Shown: positions 247 through 7,118 of the stretch, one piece after another
How positions within the stretch are numbered: position 1 is the first letter of the stretch
Layout of the letters: every line of letters starts with the position of its first letter
UHGV virus genome: UHGV-0319381
Length of the DNA stretch: 7,118 nt
Direction: 5' to 3' (one strand)
From: a virus
Program-made: the position numbers and the translations under genes
The notes under the pieces: generated by a model
Told to the model about the DNA's origin: nothing
Database searches by the model: none
The model's input: only the letters and a program-made list of their open reading frames with translations

Positions 247-371
247 TAAAGAGGGGGTAAAACGTGAGCAGAGCAATGAACAAACTGAGCGATACCTTGC
301 TAAGGAAACTTCATGGTAAGCCAGCGGAGAAAAACACGTTTTATAGTGATGGCGGAAACCTGAGCGTGAAA
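247..371. repeat. Right arm of the perfect inverted repeat (int RBS plus first 36 codons)
   Basis: Exact reverse complement of 1-125. Confidence 0.9.
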
Positions 372-1493
372 TATTTAACATCAGGGAAATTGACCTGGTA
401 TTTCACATACAGGGCCGGAACGGGAAGGGAGACACGACCCGAACGCATTAAGCTGGGAAGTTATCCTGATCTGAGCCTGAAAGCAGCCAGGGAAAAAGCC
501 GCACAGTGTCGCACATGGCTGGCTGAGGGGAAAAATCCACGTCATGAGATGAATTACACCGTACAGGAAGCGTTAAAGCCCGTAACGGTTGGCGATGCGC
601 TCACCTACTGGCTTGAGTCTTACGTAAAGGAAAACCGCGTGGATTATATCGCCCTGAAAAGGCGACTTAATAATCACGTAATACAGCAGATTGGTGCTAT
701 GCCGCTGGATAAATGCGAGCTACGGCACTGGCTGGCCTGTTTTGACCAGGTGGCAAAGCGAACGCCTGTTACTGCCGGATTCGTGCTACAGGCGTGCAAA
801 CAGGCGCTTAAGTTCTGCCGTAGGCGGCGCTATGCAATCAGCAACGTTCTGGACGATCTGAACGTGGCGGACGTTGGGAAAAAACCGGATATAAGCGAAC
901 GTGTCTTAAGTAACAAAGAACTTGGCGAATTATTGCAGGCACTGGACAAAAAAATATTTTCCCCTTACTACGTCGCGTTAATCCGCCTCCTGATTGTCTT
1001 CGGAGCCAGGACGGTAGAACTGAGGCTATCGGAGATCGGGGAGTGGGATTTTACGGAAATGCTATGGACCGTTCCGAAGGAGCACAGCAAAACGAAGGTC
1101 GCAATATTCCGGCCCATACCGGAAGCGATCCTGCCGTTCGTCACGCAGCTGGTGGAGCAGAACAGGCACACGGGCTTATTGCTGGGGGAAGTGAAACAGG
1201 AGGCCAGCGTATCGCAGTATGGAAGATTAGCGCACAGGAGGCTTAATCATCCTCACTGGTCACTGCATGACATCCGGCGCACCTTTACAACCATGCTGAA
1301 CGATTTAGGCGTTGATCCGCATGTCGTGGAGCAGCTTACAGGTCATCAGATGCCAGGAATGCAGCGAGTTTATAATCATTCCCGTTATCTGGATGCTAAA
1401 CGCAATGCGCTGGATATGTGGATGGAGCGGTTAGGGATACTGGCGGGAACACATGAAAACGTAACCACGCTACCAGTAGCCAGAAGAAAATAA
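264..1493 (+). CDS. int: Site-specific tyrosine integrase, P4-type (409 aa)
   Basis: GTG start with GAGGGGG RBS 6 nt upstream. The N-terminus (KLSDT...GGNLSVKYLTSGKLTWYFTYR) aligns by eye with the N-terminal arm-binding region of CP4-57 IntA-like integrases. C-terminal tyrosine-recombinase signatures are present: ARTVELR, HDIRRTF, and Tyr in VYNHSRYLD. Confidence 0.9.
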   Translation: MSRAMNKLSDTLLRKLHGKPAEKNTFYSDGGNLSVKYLTSGKLTWYFTYRAGTGRETRPERIKLGSYPDLSLKAAREKAAQCRTWLAEGKNPRHEMNYTVQEALKPVTVGDALTYWLESYVKENRVDYIALKRRLNNHVIQQIGAMPLDKCELRHWLACFDQVAKRTPVTAGFVLQACKQALKFCRRRRYAISNVLDDLNVADVGKKPDISERVLSNKELGELLQALDKKIFSPYYVALIRLLIVFGARTVELRLSEIGEWDFTEMLWTVPKEHSKTKVAIFRPIPEAILPFVTQLVEQNRHTGLLLGEVKQEASVSQYGRLAHRRLNHPHWSLHDIRRTFTTMLNDLGVDPHVVEQLTGHQMPGMQRVYNHSRYLDAKRNALDMWMERLGILAGTHENVTTLPVARRK

Positions 1494-1867: not shown

Positions 1868-2056
1868 GTGTTAAGCACTGATCGGTTTATACGTGAAAAA
1901 GAATGCGAAAAGCTAACAGGCCTTAGCCGCTCATGCCGCTACCGCCTGGAAAAGGCCGGACAATTCCCATCACGTCGTAAACTTGGCGGTCGTTCCGTTG
2001 GCTGGTCTTTATCCGAGGTTCTGGCCTGGAAGGATAGCTGCAAGGCAGTTCATTAA
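1868..2056 (+). CDS. alpA: AlpA-family transcriptional regulator / excisionase-like DNA-binding protein (62 aa)
   Basis: GTG start with GGGGG RBS 5 nt upstream. The sequence (LTGLSRSCRYRLEKAGQFPSRRKLGGRSVGWSLSEVLAWK) matches the AlpA pattern (TG..R...Y......FP....LG..SVGW...E...W) and sits directly downstream of int, as in P4-like and PICI elements. Confidence 0.85.
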   Translation: MLSTDRFIREKECEKLTGLSRSCRYRLEKAGQFPSRRKLGGRSVGWSLSEVLAWKDSCKAVH

Positions 2057-2202
2057 TCACGCTGGCGGCACACAGCCGCCACACATCAATCATCTGAACA
2101 CAGAGCTATAACCATGAAGATTGAATATACGCCAGAACGTGGGCGGGGATTCGTTCGCCCTGGTGAGACTGGAAAACCACAAAATTGGGGTTTTTCAGGC
2201 AT

Positions 2203-2230
2203 AAAAAAAGCGGCCCCGAAATGGAGCCGC
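2203..2230 (-). terminator. Probable intrinsic terminator for the minus-strand RHH/57-aa cassette (possibly bidirectional)
   Basis: Stem GCGGC (2210-2214) pairs with GCCGC (2226-2230); on the minus strand it is followed by a T7 run (complement of A-run 2203-2209). It lies about 95 bp past the minus-strand stop at 2326. Confidence 0.4.
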
Positions 2231-2325
2231 CTTTCTGAACAGATAACACGCTGCGCCGTTTGTGTGTGTGATCCCAAACATAAGCACGGGGATGATAGCC
2301 GCTATCAGGCTGGTGGGCAATGCAA

Positions 2326-2499
2326 TCAGTCTGGTTCAGTTCGTTGCCATACCTGCAATGAGCGCTTTTCCCTGTACTCTTTAAGGAATTGCTCAAGGGC
2401 AAAAGCACATGGCGCGAATCTTTCTGATTCATGCTCTATCTTTCTGCGCCGTCTTTTCCGTGCCGGTGATAATGTTTTGGTCAATTCTTTATCGGTCAT
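2326..2499 (-). CDS. Hypothetical small basic protein (57 aa, MTDKELTKTLSPARKRRRRKIEHESERF...)
   Basis: ATG at 2499 with AGGA 7 nt upstream; same strand as and 57 bp downstream of the RHH gene; followed by the terminator-like hairpin. An alternative start at 2514 gives 62 aa. No family recognised. Confidence 0.3.
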   Translation of the reverse strand: MTDKELTKTLSPARKRRRRKIEHESERFAPCAFALEQFLKEYREKRSLQVWQRTEPD

Positions 2500-2556
2500 T
2501 GTGTTGTCCTGCATAGCAATGCGCCGTAATACCTCACACCACGGCGCTGATAGTGA

Positions 2557-2862
2557 TTATTCTGATTCTTTGGCCTTGCGGCGCTGTAGTTCTTCACGAG
2601 CGATGGCGATAAGTTGCCCGAGTTCTTCCGTAGCTTTAATACCAATTTTTTCCACTTGCGCCAATGCATCGAGAGAAGAAATCAGAGGATTTTCACTGCT
2701 TCCTTCTGCCTGGCGGCGGGCGATCTCCCCGCGCATGGCGGTTACTATGAATCCGGCGTTGCTTTCGCCGTCCAGTTTTACGGATTCCATGCCATCAAAA
2801 GCATCATGTGGGATACGAATTGAAATCTGTTTTGATTTGTCGTTGATAGTGTTTTTTGCCAT
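2557..2862 (-). CDS. Arc/Mnt-like ribbon-helix-helix DNA-binding protein, candidate repressor (101 aa)
   Basis: ATG at 2862 with AGGAGA RBS 6 nt upstream (complement of 2869-2874). The N-terminus KQISIRIPHDAFDGMESVKLDGESNAGFIVTAMRGEI fits the RHH pattern of a beta-strand with R-x-P followed by two helices. It is divergent from the rightward operon, with operators between them. Confidence 0.55.
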   Translation of the reverse strand: MAKNTINDKSKQISIRIPHDAFDGMESVKLDGESNAGFIVTAMRGEIARRQAEGSSENPLISSLDALAQVEKIGIKATEELGQLIAIAREELQRRKAKESE

Positions 2863-2884
2863 GTGCATTCTCCTAAACAAAAGA

Positions 2885-2960
2885 TGTGATTCAGTATACA
2901 CAAAAAAGAATCACAAAAAACACTTGACCTGTGATTCAGTTGAATTTAATTTAAATCACA
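2885..2960. promoter_or_regulatory. Divergent promoter/operator region: two copies of a palindromic operator TGTGATTCAGT-N-(G/A)AATCACA flanking a TTGACC -35 box
   Basis: Operator 1: TGTGATTC 2885-2892 with GAATCACA 2908-2915. Operator 2: TGTGATTC 2930-2937 with AAATCACA 2953-2960. The two are 45 bp apart. TTGACC at 2924-2929, then 17 bp to TAATTT at 2947-2952, so operator 2 overlaps the putative rightward promoter. Confidence 0.45.
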
Positions 2961-3049
2961 CCTCAGTAAGAGGATGTAAACGACAACGCCCCGAACTGTT
3001 TGCGGCAGTAGCGGGGCGTCTAACCAAACCGTTAACAGGAGTAACGATT

Positions 3050-3247
3050 ATGGCTGGAACACAGCATACCCCACGTCTGGCGCACACACAAACTGCCTTT
3101 GTGTGGCGTTTTCTGGCACTAAGTGCCGGAGAATCTCAAATCATCCACGTAACCGCCTGGACGGAACGCGAAGCGCGTAGCCGTTGCCCGTCCGGTTGTG
3201 TTGCTGTATTCGCCGCCCGTATTCGTCAGGGGTCACATCATGCGTAA
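3050..3247 (+). CDS. Small protein paralog A (65 aa) with FVWRF...TEREAR...ARIRQG..HA motifs; possibly the Icd-like/Ash-like small-protein family of P4-like elements (name uncertain)
   Basis: ATG at 3050 with ACAGGAG RBS and 8-nt spacer. Paralogous to 3534-3704. It is the only part of the long 2114-3247 ORF that looks coding. Confidence 0.55.
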   Translation: MAGTQHTPRLAHTQTAFVWRFLALSAGESQIIHVTAWTEREARSRCPSGCVAVFAARIRQGSHHA

Positions 3248-3533
3248 AAACCGCTTGCAAAAAATTATCACGGGGCTGTATGCTTCCCCCGTCGCCCACA
3301 TGGCGACCGGGTTTGACAGCCTGAATACTACAGCGGACAGCCGCTTACATTCCGATATGCGGTTTTTTTGTGTCCGTAAACCTACCCATACCCGCATTAT
3401 GGCGGGGCGTAACGGGGGAGCCTTTGCGCTCGCTGGTTCCTGTAGTGCCAGTCTGTCAACCCTGTTACGTCTCGCCACCATGTTTGACAGCGTAGTAGCG
3501 AGACTCCTTAATTTCACTACAGGAGCCTTTCAC

Positions 3534-3704
3534 ATGGCTGTATTCGCACGCCCTTATTTTGTCTGGCGCTTTATGCAGTGCCTGACAGACAGCATTGCAA
3601 TATTCACCGTTACCGCTGCCACTGAGCGCGAAGCACGTGCACAGCTGCCGCACGCACATCTGATTTTTGTCGCCCGTATTCGTCAGGGGGTGTGCCATGC
3701 CTGA
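3534..3704 (+). CDS. Small protein paralog B (56 aa) with the same FVWRF...TEREAR...FVARIRQG..HA motifs
   Basis: ATG at 3534 with identical ACAGGAG RBS and 8-nt spacer; shares a 19-bp identical stretch (GCCCGTATTCGTCAGGGG) with paralog A. A possible TTGACA-N17-CTTAAT promoter lies at 3484-3512. An alternative in-frame start at 3240 (154 aa) is not excluded. Confidence 0.55.
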   Translation: MAVFARPYFVWRFMQCLTDSIAIFTVTAATEREARAQLPHAHLIFVARIRQGVCHA

Positions 3705-4023: not shown

Positions 4024-4323
4024 ATGAGAGCGTATTTATCTGGCTTTACTGCCAGCGGTTATGCACACCCCAAAATTATCCCCGGCGCTATTTATCTGGA
4101 TAAGAACGGTAACAGAGTAACGGTAAAAGAACTGATGTTTGACCGTGTGTATTTTATTCGTGATGGCTATTCATTTCATAGTTCGCTGAACGTGGAGATC
4201 TTTATTAGCAGATTCCGGCGGGAAATCCCGCTTTCCAGAAATAACCATGTGTCATGTATGGATGTTGATAAAAAACTACAGGAACTGAAAAACATGATTG
4301 CCGCGTGGAGAGAGCAGAAATGA
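4024..4323 (+). CDS. Hypothetical protein (99 aa) immediately upstream of, and translationally coupled to, the alpha-like gene
   Basis: ATG at 4024 with GGGGA RBS about 9 nt upstream; its TGA stop overlaps the ATG of the next gene (ATGA at 4320-4323). Confidence 0.5.
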   Translation: MRAYLSGFTASGYAHPKIIPGAIYLDKNGNRVTVKELMFDRVYFIRDGYSFHSSLNVEIFISRFRREIPLSRNNHVSCMDVDKKLQELKNMIAAWREQK

Positions 4324-6137
4324 AAAAAGCGCCAAATTTAAAACACCAGCCGCGTGACAAAATGACGGAAGTCATCATTTTTGCGGGTAGTGATGCGTGG
4401 GCACATGCGAAGCAGTGGCAGGAACAGGACGGGCGACTGGCTGGCGATAACGTGCCACCTGTCTGGCTTGGAGAGCAACAACTTGCCGAACTGGACAACC
4501 TGCAAATCGTACCGGACGGACGCTATCGCGTGCGTCTCTACCAGGCGGGGTTATTGCGTCCGGGGCTTGTTAATACCATCGGGCAGAAACTGGCAGCGGC
4601 AGGTGTCAGGGATGCTGATTATTACCCTGAAGGAATGCACAGCCAGAAACGGGAGAACTGGCGCGAATATCTGGAACGTGAGCGGGGAGAGCTGGCGGAA
4701 AAGAAAAAGGTAGTTGAACTGCCTGTAAAGAAAAAAGAGCGGGTAAAAGACGATAACGCTTCATCACTGGCGCTTAACCAGATGGGAGCAAGTCAACGCG
4801 GCGAAGTTCTCCTGGCACATTATGGCGGTGAACTGGCGATTCATGCTGACTCTGACACTGTTCACTATTACAACGGCGTTGTATGGGAGCCAGTACAGGA
4901 TAAAGAATTACAGCGAGCTATGGCGCAGATTTTCATTGATGCGGAGATCAGCTATTCGCAGAACGCCATTAAATCGGCGGTCGATACCATGAAGTTAAGT
5001 TTGCCTGTAATGGGGAATACAGCCCGTAACCTGATTGGATTCAGTAACGGTGTTTTTGATACCCGGACAGGCGATTTTCGGGAGCATAACAAAAACGACT
5101 GGTTGTTAATTGCCAGTGAATTACCTTTCAGCCCACCAGCAGAGGGGGAAACGCTGGCAACACATGCGCCGAATTTCTGGAAGTGGTTACGCCGTTCGGT
5201 GGCTGAGAATGACCGCAAGGCGGATCGCGTACTGGCTGCATTATTCATGGTGCTGGCGAACCGGTACGACTGGCAGTTATTCATTGAGGTAACAGGTCCA
5301 GGGGGAAGTGGTAAAAGCGTGATGGCGGAGATTTGCACCATGCTGGCGGGTAAGGCCAACACGGTATCGGCAAGCATGAAGGCGCTGGAAGATGCCAGGG
5401 AACGCGCGTTAGTGGTTGGCTTTTCGCTGATTATCATGCCGGATATGACCCGTTACGCTGGTGATGGCGCAGGAATTAAGGCCATTACAGGCGGTGACAA
5501 GGTGGCAATCGACCCGAAGCATAAAGCCCCCTACTCAACACGCATTCAGGCGGTAGTGTTGGCGGTGAACAATAACGCCATGTCATTCAGTGACCGCAGC
5601 GGGGGGATTTCACGTCGTCGGGTGATATTCAATTTTTCGGAGGTTGTACCGGAAAACGAACGCGACCCCATGCTGGCAGAAAAAATAGAAGGAGAGCTGG
5701 CGGTTGTGATTCGCCACCTGCTTACTCGTTTTTCTGACCAGGACGCAGCTAAACGCCTGCTGTATGAGCAGCAGAAATCAGAAGAAGCTCTGGTGATAAA
5801 ACGCGAGGGCGATTCGCTGGTGGACTTCTGCGGCTATCTCATGTCGTCGGTAATGTGTGATGGTCTGTTAGTGGGTAATGCCGAAATTATTCCGTTCAGT
5901 CCGCGCAGGTATCTTTATCACGCCTATCTGGCATATATGAGGGCACACGGATTCGGTAAACCTGTAACACTGACGCGCTTCGGTAAAGATATGCCGGGGG
6001 CAATGGCGGAATATGGCAGGGAGTATATGAAACGGAAAACGAAGCACGGTTTGCGTTCAAACGTGACACTGACGGAGGAATCAGAAGACTGGATGCCATC
6101 ATGTGTATCGGTCACTAATGACGACAGCAAAAATTAA
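4320..6137 (+). CDS. P4 alpha-like replication protein: SF3-type helicase / phage-plasmid primase P4-family C-terminal region (605 aa)
   Basis: ATG at 4320 with GGAG RBS; an alternative GTG at 4305 gives 610 aa. Walker A VTGPGGSGKS at about residues 325-333 and Walker B-like hydrophobic-D (LIIMPD). A long C-terminal region is followed immediately by TGTTCACC iterons. The N-terminal roughly 300 aa carry no primase signature I can recognise by eye. Confidence 0.8.
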   Translation: MKKAPNLKHQPRDKMTEVIIFAGSDAWAHAKQWQEQDGRLAGDNVPPVWLGEQQLAELDNLQIVPDGRYRVRLYQAGLLRPGLVNTIGQKLAAAGVRDADYYPEGMHSQKRENWREYLERERGELAEKKKVVELPVKKKERVKDDNASSLALNQMGASQRGEVLLAHYGGELAIHADSDTVHYYNGVVWEPVQDKELQRAMAQIFIDAEISYSQNAIKSAVDTMKLSLPVMGNTARNLIGFSNGVFDTRTGDFREHNKNDWLLIASELPFSPPAEGETLATHAPNFWKWLRRSVAENDRKADRVLAALFMVLANRYDWQLFIEVTGPGGSGKSVMAEICTMLAGKANTVSASMKALEDARERALVVGFSLIIMPDMTRYAGDGAGIKAITGGDKVAIDPKHKAPYSTRIQAVVLAVNNNAMSFSDRSGGISRRRVIFNFSEVVPENERDPMLAEKIEGELAVVIRHLLTRFSDQDAAKRLLYEQQKSEEALVIKREGDSLVDFCGYLMSSVMCDGLLVGNAEIIPFSPRRYLYHAYLAYMRAHGFGKPVTLTRFGKDMPGAMAEYGREYMKRKTKHGLRSNVTLTEESEDWMPSCVSVTNDDSKN

Positions 6138-6151
6138 ACTTATGGAATAAC

Positions 6152-6378
6152 TGTTCACCACTGTTCACCCTGTTATAAATATCTTTTATATCAGTATATT
6201 ATATGGTGAACAGTTATTTGTGAACTGTTCACCAAACTATTCACTGTTCACCTTTTTGATTATTTATTGAGCTTTAAGGGTGAACAGTGGTGAACAGTTG
6301 GTGAATAGTTTTTGTGAAACTGTTCACCCCTTAACATTATGAATAAAAAGGGAAAATCTCAAAAGGTGAACAGGTGAA
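6152..6378. repeat. Iteron array, putative origin of replication (crr/ori-like): about 11 copies of TGTTCACC in both orientations around an AT-rich core
   Basis: Forward TGTTCACC at 6152, 6162, 6226, 6245, 6321. Reverse GGTGAACA at 6205, 6279, 6289, 6365, with degenerate copies at 6300 and 6373. Several copies sit at 10-11 bp phasing. AT-rich stretch at 6171-6204. Confidence 0.75.
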
Positions 6379-6424
6379 GGGTTAAAATGCAAAAATTTTA
6401 TTTTATTGCTGTGAGGTAAAGCCT

Positions 6425-6670
6425 GTGACAACGAAGCACGCAAAAAAACCACAATCTCACGCCCTTGATTTGACAGAACACTGGCTGAGGGTGGCGATAA
6501 AAATCATCGACCGCAACGCGGGAGAAGGGTACGCAAAAGCACATCCCGAACTGATAAGCGCATTCATGACCACGGCGGCAGCAAACTTTGCCACGCTGAC
6601 AGAACGGGAGATTGCCGAAGCGGAACAGGTGACAACCATCAACGTTAAAACCGGAGAGCAGACAGCATGA
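6425..6670 (+). CDS. Hypothetical protein (81 aa)
   Basis: GTG at 6425 with GAGG RBS 8 nt upstream; stop overlaps the start of the following SSB-like ORF (ATGA at 6667-6670). No family recognised. Confidence 0.4.
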   Translation: MTTKHAKKPQSHALDLTEHWLRVAIKIIDRNAGEGYAKAHPELISAFMTTAAANFATLTEREIAEAEQVTTINVKTGEQTA

Positions 6671-7118
6671 CAGCACAGATAGCGGCTTACGGGCGGCTGG
6701 TGGCTGACCCGCAGTTAAAGACCACCAGCAAAGGGACACAAATGGCGATGGCGAGTATGGCGGTTCCCCTGCCGTGCAGCCAGGCAGATGACGGAACGGC
6801 GACGATGTGGTTATCTGTCCTGGCGTTTGGCAGACAGGCCGACGCACTGGCAAAACACCACAAAGGCGAACTGGTGAGCGTGGCGGGTAACATGCAGGTG
6901 AGCCAGTGGACAGGCCAGAACGGGGAAACGCGGCAGGGCTGGCAGGTTATTGCAGACAGCGTAATCAGTTGCTTAAAACGGTATGTTATCCCCGTACGGA
7001 TCAACATTTCCCGCCTGTTGTTTTGCCCTGTTCAGCGCGTCAGTAGCCTGGCCCTGTTGAGCTTTTTTGCCGCCCGGTCGCGCCGTTCGCGCACTGATTA
7101 CGCTGTCTGCAATAACCT
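6667..7118 (+). CDS. SSB-like OB-fold single-stranded DNA-binding protein, 3'-partial (runs off the window)
   Basis: ATG at 6667 with GGAG RBS. IAAYGRLVADPQLKTTSKGTQMAMASMAV...WLSVLAFGRQADALAKHHKGELVSVAGNMQVSQWTGQNGETRQGWQVIADSV aligns by eye with the bacterial SSB OB-fold pattern (VGRLG.DPE.R.T..G...A.F..A...W....A.G..AE.A..YL.KGS.V...G.L....W.D..G..R....V.A). No stop before the window end; the region after the OB fold is atypical (hydrophobic/basic rather than Gly-rich acidic tail). Confidence 0.55.
   Translation, partial: MTAQIAAYGRLVADPQLKTTSKGTQMAMASMAVPLPCSQADDGTATMWLSVLAFGRQADALAKHHKGELVSVAGNMQVSQWTGQNGETRQGWQVIADSVISCLKRYVIPVRINISRLLFCPVQRVSSLALLSFFAARSRRSRTDYAVCNN

Follow-up and report, generated by a model that had tools for sequence, protein, structure and literature searches.

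A probable replication origin built of P4-type iterons 3' of the rep gene in a phage-inducible chromosomal island

The stretch of 7,118 nucleotides of the virus genome UHGV-0319381 analysed here (hereafter the window) encodes a replication initiator-like protein, Rep, followed by an intergenic gap crowded with short repeats, which raises the question of whether this gap is the place where the element starts its replication. A sequence-only reading of the locus had described about 11 copies of one octamer, identified this octamer as the type I iteron of satellite P4, and proposed a cis replication region or origin placed right after a homolog of the P4 alpha gene. The comparisons described below make it very probable that the gap (6138-6424) serves a phage-inducible chromosomal island (PICI), or a capsid-forming PICI (cf-PICI), as its origin of vegetative replication, and the proposed origin is thus retained. 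The evidence comprises a homologous gap of the same architecture in the island EcCICFT073, which has been functionally tested; the enrichment of the octamer, its annotation in P4, the match of Rep to the P4 origin-binding domain structure (1KA8), the co-variation of iterons with Rep, the conservation of the iterons, their occurrence as a sole cluster and the location of the least stable 30-mer; and the presence of the same rep-ori module in different PICIs and on a circular record of 10.79 kb.

The gap comprises 287 bp, bounded by the stop codon (6135-6137) of the open reading frame (ORF) 4305/4320-6137 and by an ORF starting at 6425; the first iteron begins at 6152. The octamer TGTTCACC has ten exact matches in the window, nine of which fall within 221 bp of the gap (6152-6372), starting at 6152, 6162, 6226, 6245 and 6321 on the plus strand and at 6205, 6279, 6289 and 6365 on the minus strand. 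Dinucleotide-preserving shuffles of the whole window gave a mean of 0.28 and a maximum of 3 matches, and none of 200 reached 10. Together with three degenerate copies, one with a single mismatch (6300-6307) and two with two mismatches each (6238-6245 and 6373-6380), the array agrees with the copy number reported earlier, and the reported phasing of 10-11 bp was found as spacings of 10, 10 and 11 bp at 6152/6162 and 6279/6289/6300. The extended iteron unit is ACTGTTCACC, with the core TTCACC. The region is organised as follows:

6138-6424, no strand: origin region (ori), the whole intergenic gap between the rep stop codon and the next ORF, containing no ORF of at least 50 amino acids (aa)
6152-6159 and 6162-6169, plus strand: iterons 1 and 2, exact, direct, with 10-bp spacing
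6171-6204, no strand: A+T-rich spacer 1, 88% A+T, containing a match to the IHF consensus (6189-6201)
6205-6212, minus strand: iteron 3, exact, opposing iterons 1 and 2 across spacer 1
6226-6233, 6238-6245 and 6245-6252, plus strand: iterons 4 to 6, exact, degenerate (TATTCACT) and exact, respectively
6253-6278, no strand: central A+T-rich spacer, 81% A+T, the approximate dyad centre
6279-6286, 6289-6296 and 6300-6307, minus strand: iterons 7 to 9, the first two exact and the third with one mismatch, spaced by 10 and 11 bp
6321-6328, plus strand: iteron 10, exact, 13 nt past iteron 9
6329-6364, no strand: A-rich spacer 3, 75% A+T, aligning with its A+T-rich counterpart in the P4 ori core
6365-6372 and 6373-6380, minus strand: iterons 11 and 12, exact and degenerate (GGTGAAGG), respectively
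6381-6412, no strand: conserved A+T-rich tail with conserved columns and low duplex stability at 6378-6407

The stretch 6171-6204, which the sequence-only reading had described as A+T-rich and flanked by octamers, contains the least stable 30-mer of the whole window (6174-6203), with a nearest-neighbour dG of -26.3 kcal/mol against a mean of -40.8 (standard deviation 3.6), and this spacer is a likely DNA-unwinding element. The symmetry of the region is also apparent from an inverted repeat (6136-6171 and 6277-6312) and a direct repeat (6204-6233 and 6299-6328). As a single strand the region folds far better than its shuffles (z=-7.8); a search of Rfam gave far sub-threshold matches of hairpin type only, so that the region does not correspond to a known RNA and the matches reflect its strong folding. 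DnaA boxes occur at chance level in the window, and the origin region holds none except for one match with one mismatch.

Several smaller features of the array may be mentioned. The IHF consensus WATCARNNNNTTR has an exact match at 6189-6201, inside the first spacer, which is partly conserved in relatives; the pattern occurs three times in the window against 0.65 expected. The 13-nt gaps between back-to-back iterons (6213-6225 and 6308-6320) are conserved and each contains a GTGAA(A)C half-site, which forms a near-palindrome with the following iteron (e.g. GTGAACTGTTCAC) and may be the site for a dimer. The tenth exact copy of TGTTCACC, at 5564-5571 on the minus strand, stands by itself within the sequence coding for the helicase; the copy of the locus in E. 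coli SHP24 has it too, and it is probably there by chance.

The protein that would act on these repeats is encoded immediately upstream:

4320-6137, plus strand: rep, likely starting at ATG 4320 (605 aa; start according to the RefSeq annotation of the related island L003), the mechanically called ORF running from GTG 4305 (610 aa)

Rep has an alpha/beta domain at its N-terminus (aa 6-125), followed by a D5_N and superfamily 3 (SF3) helicase region and, at the C-terminus, an origin-binding domain of winged-helix type, with Pfam matches to D5_N, DUF5906 (the SF3 helicase core) and Pox_D5 (E=6.6e-13, aa 501-596). Residues 118-600 are 48% identical to residues 290-771 of P4 alpha over 484 aa (BLASTP, E=4e-163), and residues 502-598 match the structure 1KA8 (E=1e-24), which is described in the PDB as the P4 origin-binding domain. 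The motif KRxTKxG(I/L)(R/Q)(S/T)N is kept in both proteins. P4 alpha, however, carries a fused primase recognised by Pfam as Zn_Ribbon_Prim (aa 30-66) and Toprim_3 (aa 210-299), while no Pfam family was matched in the first 170 residues of Rep, no BLASTP similarity to alpha precedes residue 118, and hhalign against the P4 Toprim region returned nothing. The N-terminus belongs to phrog_2850, a family of unknown function, and its fold is only weakly Toprim-like. Rep is therefore predicted to be devoid of the P4-type Zn-ribbon and Toprim primase domains, and the designation of the gene as alpha-like applies to the helicase and origin-binding parts but not to the primase.

In the RefSeq record of P4 (NC_001609), 8-mers annotated as "ori type 1 repeat" are found in ori (9310-9413; six copies) and in crr (4291-4590), the latter located directly 3' of the alpha gene (4636-6969, minus strand). 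This repeat is TGTTCACC, with 11 exact copies in P4, and the identity given in the sequence-only reading is hence correct; the extended form ACTGTTCACC matches as well. Full-text matches of the octamer in the literature were confined to unrelated primer sequences. The C-terminal domain of P4 alpha reportedly binds these type I repeats. The likeness extends to the arrangement of the sites, since the P4 ori core has a set of three iterons, then after 13-14 nt a single opposed iteron and, beyond about 35 bp of A+T-rich spacer, a pair of iterons, and both the right half of the region as read (6277-6380) and the left half after reverse complementation (6150-6252) are collinear with it (9309-9415). 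The local alignment scores of 62 and 54, in which the iterons dominate, compare with at most 26 for shuffled sequences. The region thus appears to be an inverted duplication of a P4-ori-core-like module with its centre near 6265, whereas P4 ori has the module once and not directly after the initiator gene. The type II decamer repeats of P4 ori have only scattered one-mismatch matches in the window, at chance level. P4 also has a separate crr 4.5 kb from ori, and no second iteron cluster was found in the window or in the complete 15-kb related island (L003); the comparison with P4 ori and crr therefore held for the iteron and the ori-core layout, but the locus contains one composite cluster instead of an ori and a distant crr.

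The closest functional evidence comes from EcCICFT073. According to Fillol-Salom et al. (2018, ISME J, PMC6092414), its rep-ori segment maintained a temperature-sensitive plasmid, a rep mutant gave no colonies and deletion of ori gave significantly fewer colonies. EcCICFT073 shares with the element the gene order int, alpA, Icd-like, DUF4222, rep, gap, small ORF, ssb and perC, the size of the gap between rep and the small ORF (288 bp against 287 bp), and the order, orientation and spacing of the iteron sets around the A+T-rich spacer. Its gap opens with two iterons in direct orientation, which an A+T-rich spacer of about 39 bp separates from a single opposed iteron; after 16 nt come three direct iterons and, beyond a spacer of about 25 bp, two or three opposed ones. 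A further gap of 16 nt leads to one direct iteron, and a spacer of about 40 bp divides this from the last two iterons, which are opposed. The sequences of the iterons are different, those of EcCICFT073 being CTGTCTACC or (C)TGTCTACC with the core TCTACC, and its third spacer is G+C-rich rather than A-rich. The two Rep proteins are 48% identical overall, with about 70% identity in the N-terminal part, 46% in the helicase and about 30% in the origin-binding domain. The characteristic traits of Gram-negative PICI origins, a position immediately 3' of rep and iteron sets flanking an A+T-rich stretch, are present here together with two further such units, and the position is the same in the related loci L002-L016, L077, L078 and L079. 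PMC6092414 describes as equivalent the origins of the pathogenicity islands of Staphylococcus aureus (SaPIs) and other Gram-positive PICIs, in which two iteron sets flank an A+T-rich region 3' of rep. These origins share with the window the location, the flanked A+T-rich stretch and Rep-specific iterons, but have no sequence homology to it, and the Gram-positive islands differ in that their transcription is organised divergently and pri and rep are often separate genes (PMC6092414).

The resemblance to P4 would also permit the region to be a crr-like cis enhancer only, to which Rep binds while the island initiates replication from another origin located elsewhere. Like P4 crr, the region lies immediately 3' of an alpha-type gene and has type I iterons pointing both ways about A-rich spacers, and parts of it align with crr units. 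Moreover, P4-type relatives such as L017 do have two clusters: next to the P4-type alpha homologue of Erwinia rhapontici (L017), TGTTCACC clusters are found at 52-144 and 6508-6610, about 2 kb upstream and downstream of the gene, a bipartite P4-like layout that contrasts with the single cluster of PICI-type loci. However, P4 crr is built of two 120-bp direct repeats, several of whose iterons are degenerate, and works together with the distant ori, while the repeats of the window form an inverted pair of ori-like modules and a sole cluster. A second cluster is absent from the complete 15-kb relative and from the 3-kb flanks of close relatives of the TGTTCACC class (L004-L006 and L008-L010); the alignment to crr (scores of 46 and 34) is poorer than to the P4 ori core; and deletion of the EcCICFT073 equivalent impaired a minimal rep-ori plasmid carrying no other island DNA (PMC6092414). 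An exclusively enhancing role is accordingly quite improbable.

A mainly regulatory role of the repeats was also considered, either as a Rep operator or promoter for ssb and the packaging operon, or as sites for the "handcuffing" control of copy number. The region is situated between two co-directional gene blocks, no terminator was found after rep, the conserved A+T-rich tail (6381-6412) precedes the next gene, and plasmid iterons are known in both roles. The tail could be a second easily melted stretch or the promoter region of the downstream operon. On the other hand, the promoter scan revealed no plus-strand sigma-70-like promoter, which together with the missing terminator indicates that transcription probably reads through the origin. 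The inverted iteron sets around the least stable DNA represent an origin architecture, and the homologous sequences of P4 and EcCICFT073 are origins. Regulation as the main function is thus improbable, although a regulatory side-role could coexist with origin function.

The specificity of the repeats for Rep was assessed from a scan of one genome per species, which yielded 72 loci encoding relatives; 26 of these with complete 3' ends, from about ten genera and including P4 and EcCICFT073, were examined. An over-represented 8-mer is present in the approximately 300 bp past the stop codon in most of the 26 loci, including every locus of PICI-type layout; none was found in this interval in L013 and in the Erwinia locus L017. 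The iterons are distributed as follows:

TGTTCACC: Escherichia, Klebsiella, Raoultella, Kluyvera, Pluralibacter, Citrobacter and P4
TGTCTACC: L007, L011 and L012
TGTCCGCC or TGTCCACC: Serratia
TGTGCACC: Proteus
TCTCTACC: Symbiopectobacterium

Despite the changes in the iteron, the layout of orientations and spacers is constant across the relatives, and the first spacer is A+T-rich in EcCICFT073 and in every mapped iteron class, except at the TCTCTACC loci L052 and L056. The five iteron classes coincide with five sequence classes of Rep residues 571-600, with no discordant case among the 26 loci. The change is sharply localised in L007, L011 and L012, where the helicase is 89-92% identical to that of the window Rep and the rest of the binding domain 79-86%, but the segment corresponding to residues 571-600 is only 29% identical and has a 5-residue insertion, and the iteron is TGTCTACC. 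Conversely, the helicase of P4 alpha is only 53% identical to that of the window Rep, yet the motif of the segment and the iteron are kept. By homology to 1KA8 and the general anatomy of winged-helix domains (PMC2777425), residues 571-600 probably form the beta-hairpin wing after the recognition helix. This pattern would be expected if the C-terminal domain recognised the iterons specifically.

Nine distinct sequences of the TGTTCACC class, drawn from six genera, show a column conservation of 0.93 in the iterons and 0.76 in the intervening DNA (Mann-Whitney p=1e-11). Of 5426 complete E. coli genomes, 594 carry the 287-bp region, with an identity of 90-100% in every genome but one, and none of the 25 E. 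coli matches listed has an annotation for it. These observations bear on the possibility that the repeats are a chance or decaying feature without present function, which is barely credible given that no shuffled sequence reached the observed count of TGTTCACC, the layout is kept across genera and iteron sequences, the iteron columns are preferentially conserved and the region is found in so many genomes.

The element to which the origin belongs was identified from its gene content. All called genes of the window are located on the plus strand, in the order int, alpA, Icd-like, DUF4222, rep, ori, small ORF and ssb; apart from rep they are:

264-1493, plus strand: tyrosine integrase (int)
1868-2056, plus strand: AlpA/excisionase-like ORF
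2114-3247 (377 aa) and 3198-3704 (168 aa), plus strand: overlapping ORFs for Icd-like proteins
4024-4323, plus strand: DUF4222 protein
6425-6670, plus strand: small conserved ORF of 81 aa (phrog_1231, unknown function), the first gene past ori
6667-6969, plus strand: 5' part of ssb (Pfam SSB, E=1.8e-16), forming a replication module with rep and ori, broken at 6969

A copy of the window with 97% identity is found in E. coli SHP24 as a 15-kb island inserted in tqsA, which beyond ssb encodes PerC, major capsid, prohead protease, portal, head-closure and connector proteins, an HNH protein, TerS and TerL, with no tail or lysis genes in the 15 kb. The gene set of capsid-forming PICIs (bioRxiv 10.1101/2022.09.08.507074) matches that of the SHP24 island. 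A 100% identical copy of the gap is located in a similar island at the roxA/phoQ site. An ori with 95% identity occurs in a classical PICI (L078; NZ_CP148328.1, 1-10790), deposited as a circular non-mobilizable E. coli plasmid of 10.79 kb, whose content is that of a complete PICI with int, alpA, Icd-like, DUF4222, rep, ori and a capsid-protease fusion; the closed circular record suggests that the island was captured as a closed circle. The same rep-ori module is therefore present in PICIs with differing packaging modules and att sites. The hallmarks of PICIs are found in the form of the integrase, the alpA-type regulator and the rightward genes, while the size, which in PICIs is about 10-15 kb, and the lack of tail and lysis genes are taken from the 15-kb relative, the window itself ending in ssb. 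None of the P4 core genes psu, delta, sid, epsilon/ash and cnr was found among the ORFs of the window or the annotated relatives. In terms of gene content the element is thus assigned to the PICIs or capsid-forming PICIs and not to the P4-like satellites, from which it differs in having none of sid, psu, delta and epsilon. The left part of a cf-PICI (int, regulator and primase) can equal that of a PICI, and the families are intermingled in the primase-replicase tree (De Sousa et al. 2023, PMC10085698). No ori is described in the cf-PICI papers.

The co-occurrence of the origin with different packaging modules is relevant to another possible function of the repeats, namely as the packaging signal of the island (a cos or pac site, or a binding site for TerS). 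Packaging sites can be repeat-rich and intergenic, but here the iteron class tracks the C-terminal segment of Rep, the region is combined with unrelated packaging modules in capsid-forming (L003 and L079) and classical (L078) islands, and terS and terL are located about 6 kb away, which makes a packaging signal most unlikely. An att site was likewise considered for the repeats and rejected.

Some additional observations were made on the genes around the origin. The two Icd-like ORFs (2114-3704) both end in Icd-like or transcriptional-repressor-like domains; the SHP24 counterpart of the first is annotated as a pseudogene, and this region varies between otherwise similar islands. Two E. coli proteins of 233 aa (P0002 and P0003) fuse the N-terminal domain of Rep (99% identical) to an SSB domain, which implies deletion variants that have lost the helicase, ori and the small ORF. 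The last 149 bases of the window (6970-7118) are the reverse complement of the ssb 3' end, ending with the reverse complement of 6944-6969, and it is this fold-back that breaks the ssb ORF at 6969; in other E. coli genomes the sequence 6968-7118 is contiguous within a normal ssb gene, and the fold-back is probably an assembly artefact at the contig end. The genome of E. coli CREC-629 (NZ_CP024815.1; H40) has six separate places matching the 287-bp origin, which suggests that several islands or P4-like elements of the same iteron type reside in one cell and bears on possible cross-talk or incompatibility between them.

Rep binding, the melting site, the loading of a double hexamer and the source of primers may be envisaged as follows. 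After induction and excision of the island, Rep would bind the approximately 12 iterons through its C-terminal winged-helix domain. The two opposed modules, each resembling the P4 ori core, would each nucleate one hexamer, and the duplex would open at the A+T-rich spacers, first at 6171-6204. The two helicases would then move outward in bidirectional theta replication, with the adjacent island-encoded SSB coating the strands. Because Rep is predicted to lack the Zn-ribbon and Toprim primase domains, primers would presumably be supplied by the host DnaG or by the helper phage. SV40 large T antigen and papillomavirus E1 are SF3 helicases with their own origin-binding domains, which act at inverted sites with adjacent A+T-rich DNA. 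By analogy from general knowledge, these origins share with the window a layout suited to the loading of two hexamers, but the fold of their origin-binding domains is different and the sites are unrelated, and for the window the assembly of a double hexamer is a suggestion from the layout.

Several points weigh against the identification of the region as an origin working in this way. Binding, melting and initiation are all inferred for this particular allele. The assignment of residues 571-600 to the wing depends on the alignment with 1KA8 and general knowledge, an AlphaFold single-sequence model having a pLDDT of 36. The sequences that co-vary are related, so that the number of independent switches is small. 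Since the third spacer of EcCICFT073 is G+C-rich, the first spacer alone remains as a consistent melting candidate, and a symmetric double hexamer may be too simple a picture. Finally, what was deposited as a circular "plasmid" could be a circle that was excised but does not replicate, captured by long-read assembly.

The origin type of Gram-negative PICIs is known already, and one allele, that of EcCICFT073, has been functionally tested. The papers, in so far as they are available, do not state that this Rep allele is a close homologue of P4 alpha with an identical iteron, although the iteron list in Figure 2a of PMC6092414 may already show this allele; nor do they state that the origin duplicates the P4 ori core in inverted orientation or that a short C-terminal segment tracks the specificity for iterons. 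In these publications, the initiators of PICIs and P4 are regarded as only distantly homologous (PMC6092414) or as analogues (PMC10085698). The shared iteron and core layout, the localised specificity segment and the missing primase instead speak for true homology between this Rep allele and P4 alpha and for a DNA code common to both.

It is possible, though doubtful at present, that P4 alpha and this PICI Rep, having one iteron code in common, recognise each other's origins, leading to cross-activation, titration or exclusion between P4-like satellites and PICIs in enterobacteria carrying both. The same tentative proposal holds that the specificity has been reprogrammed in nature by a swap of about 30 residues at the C-terminus of Rep, and that two hexamers are loaded at a PICI ori made of two copies of the P4 ori core in inverted arrangement, Rep having lost the primase. 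The origin would permit amplification of the island after induction by a helper phage, which underlies the high-frequency transfer of such islands, many of which carry virulence regulators such as PerC. Marking this common module would improve the annotation of islands and aid the design of PICI-based delivery vectors.

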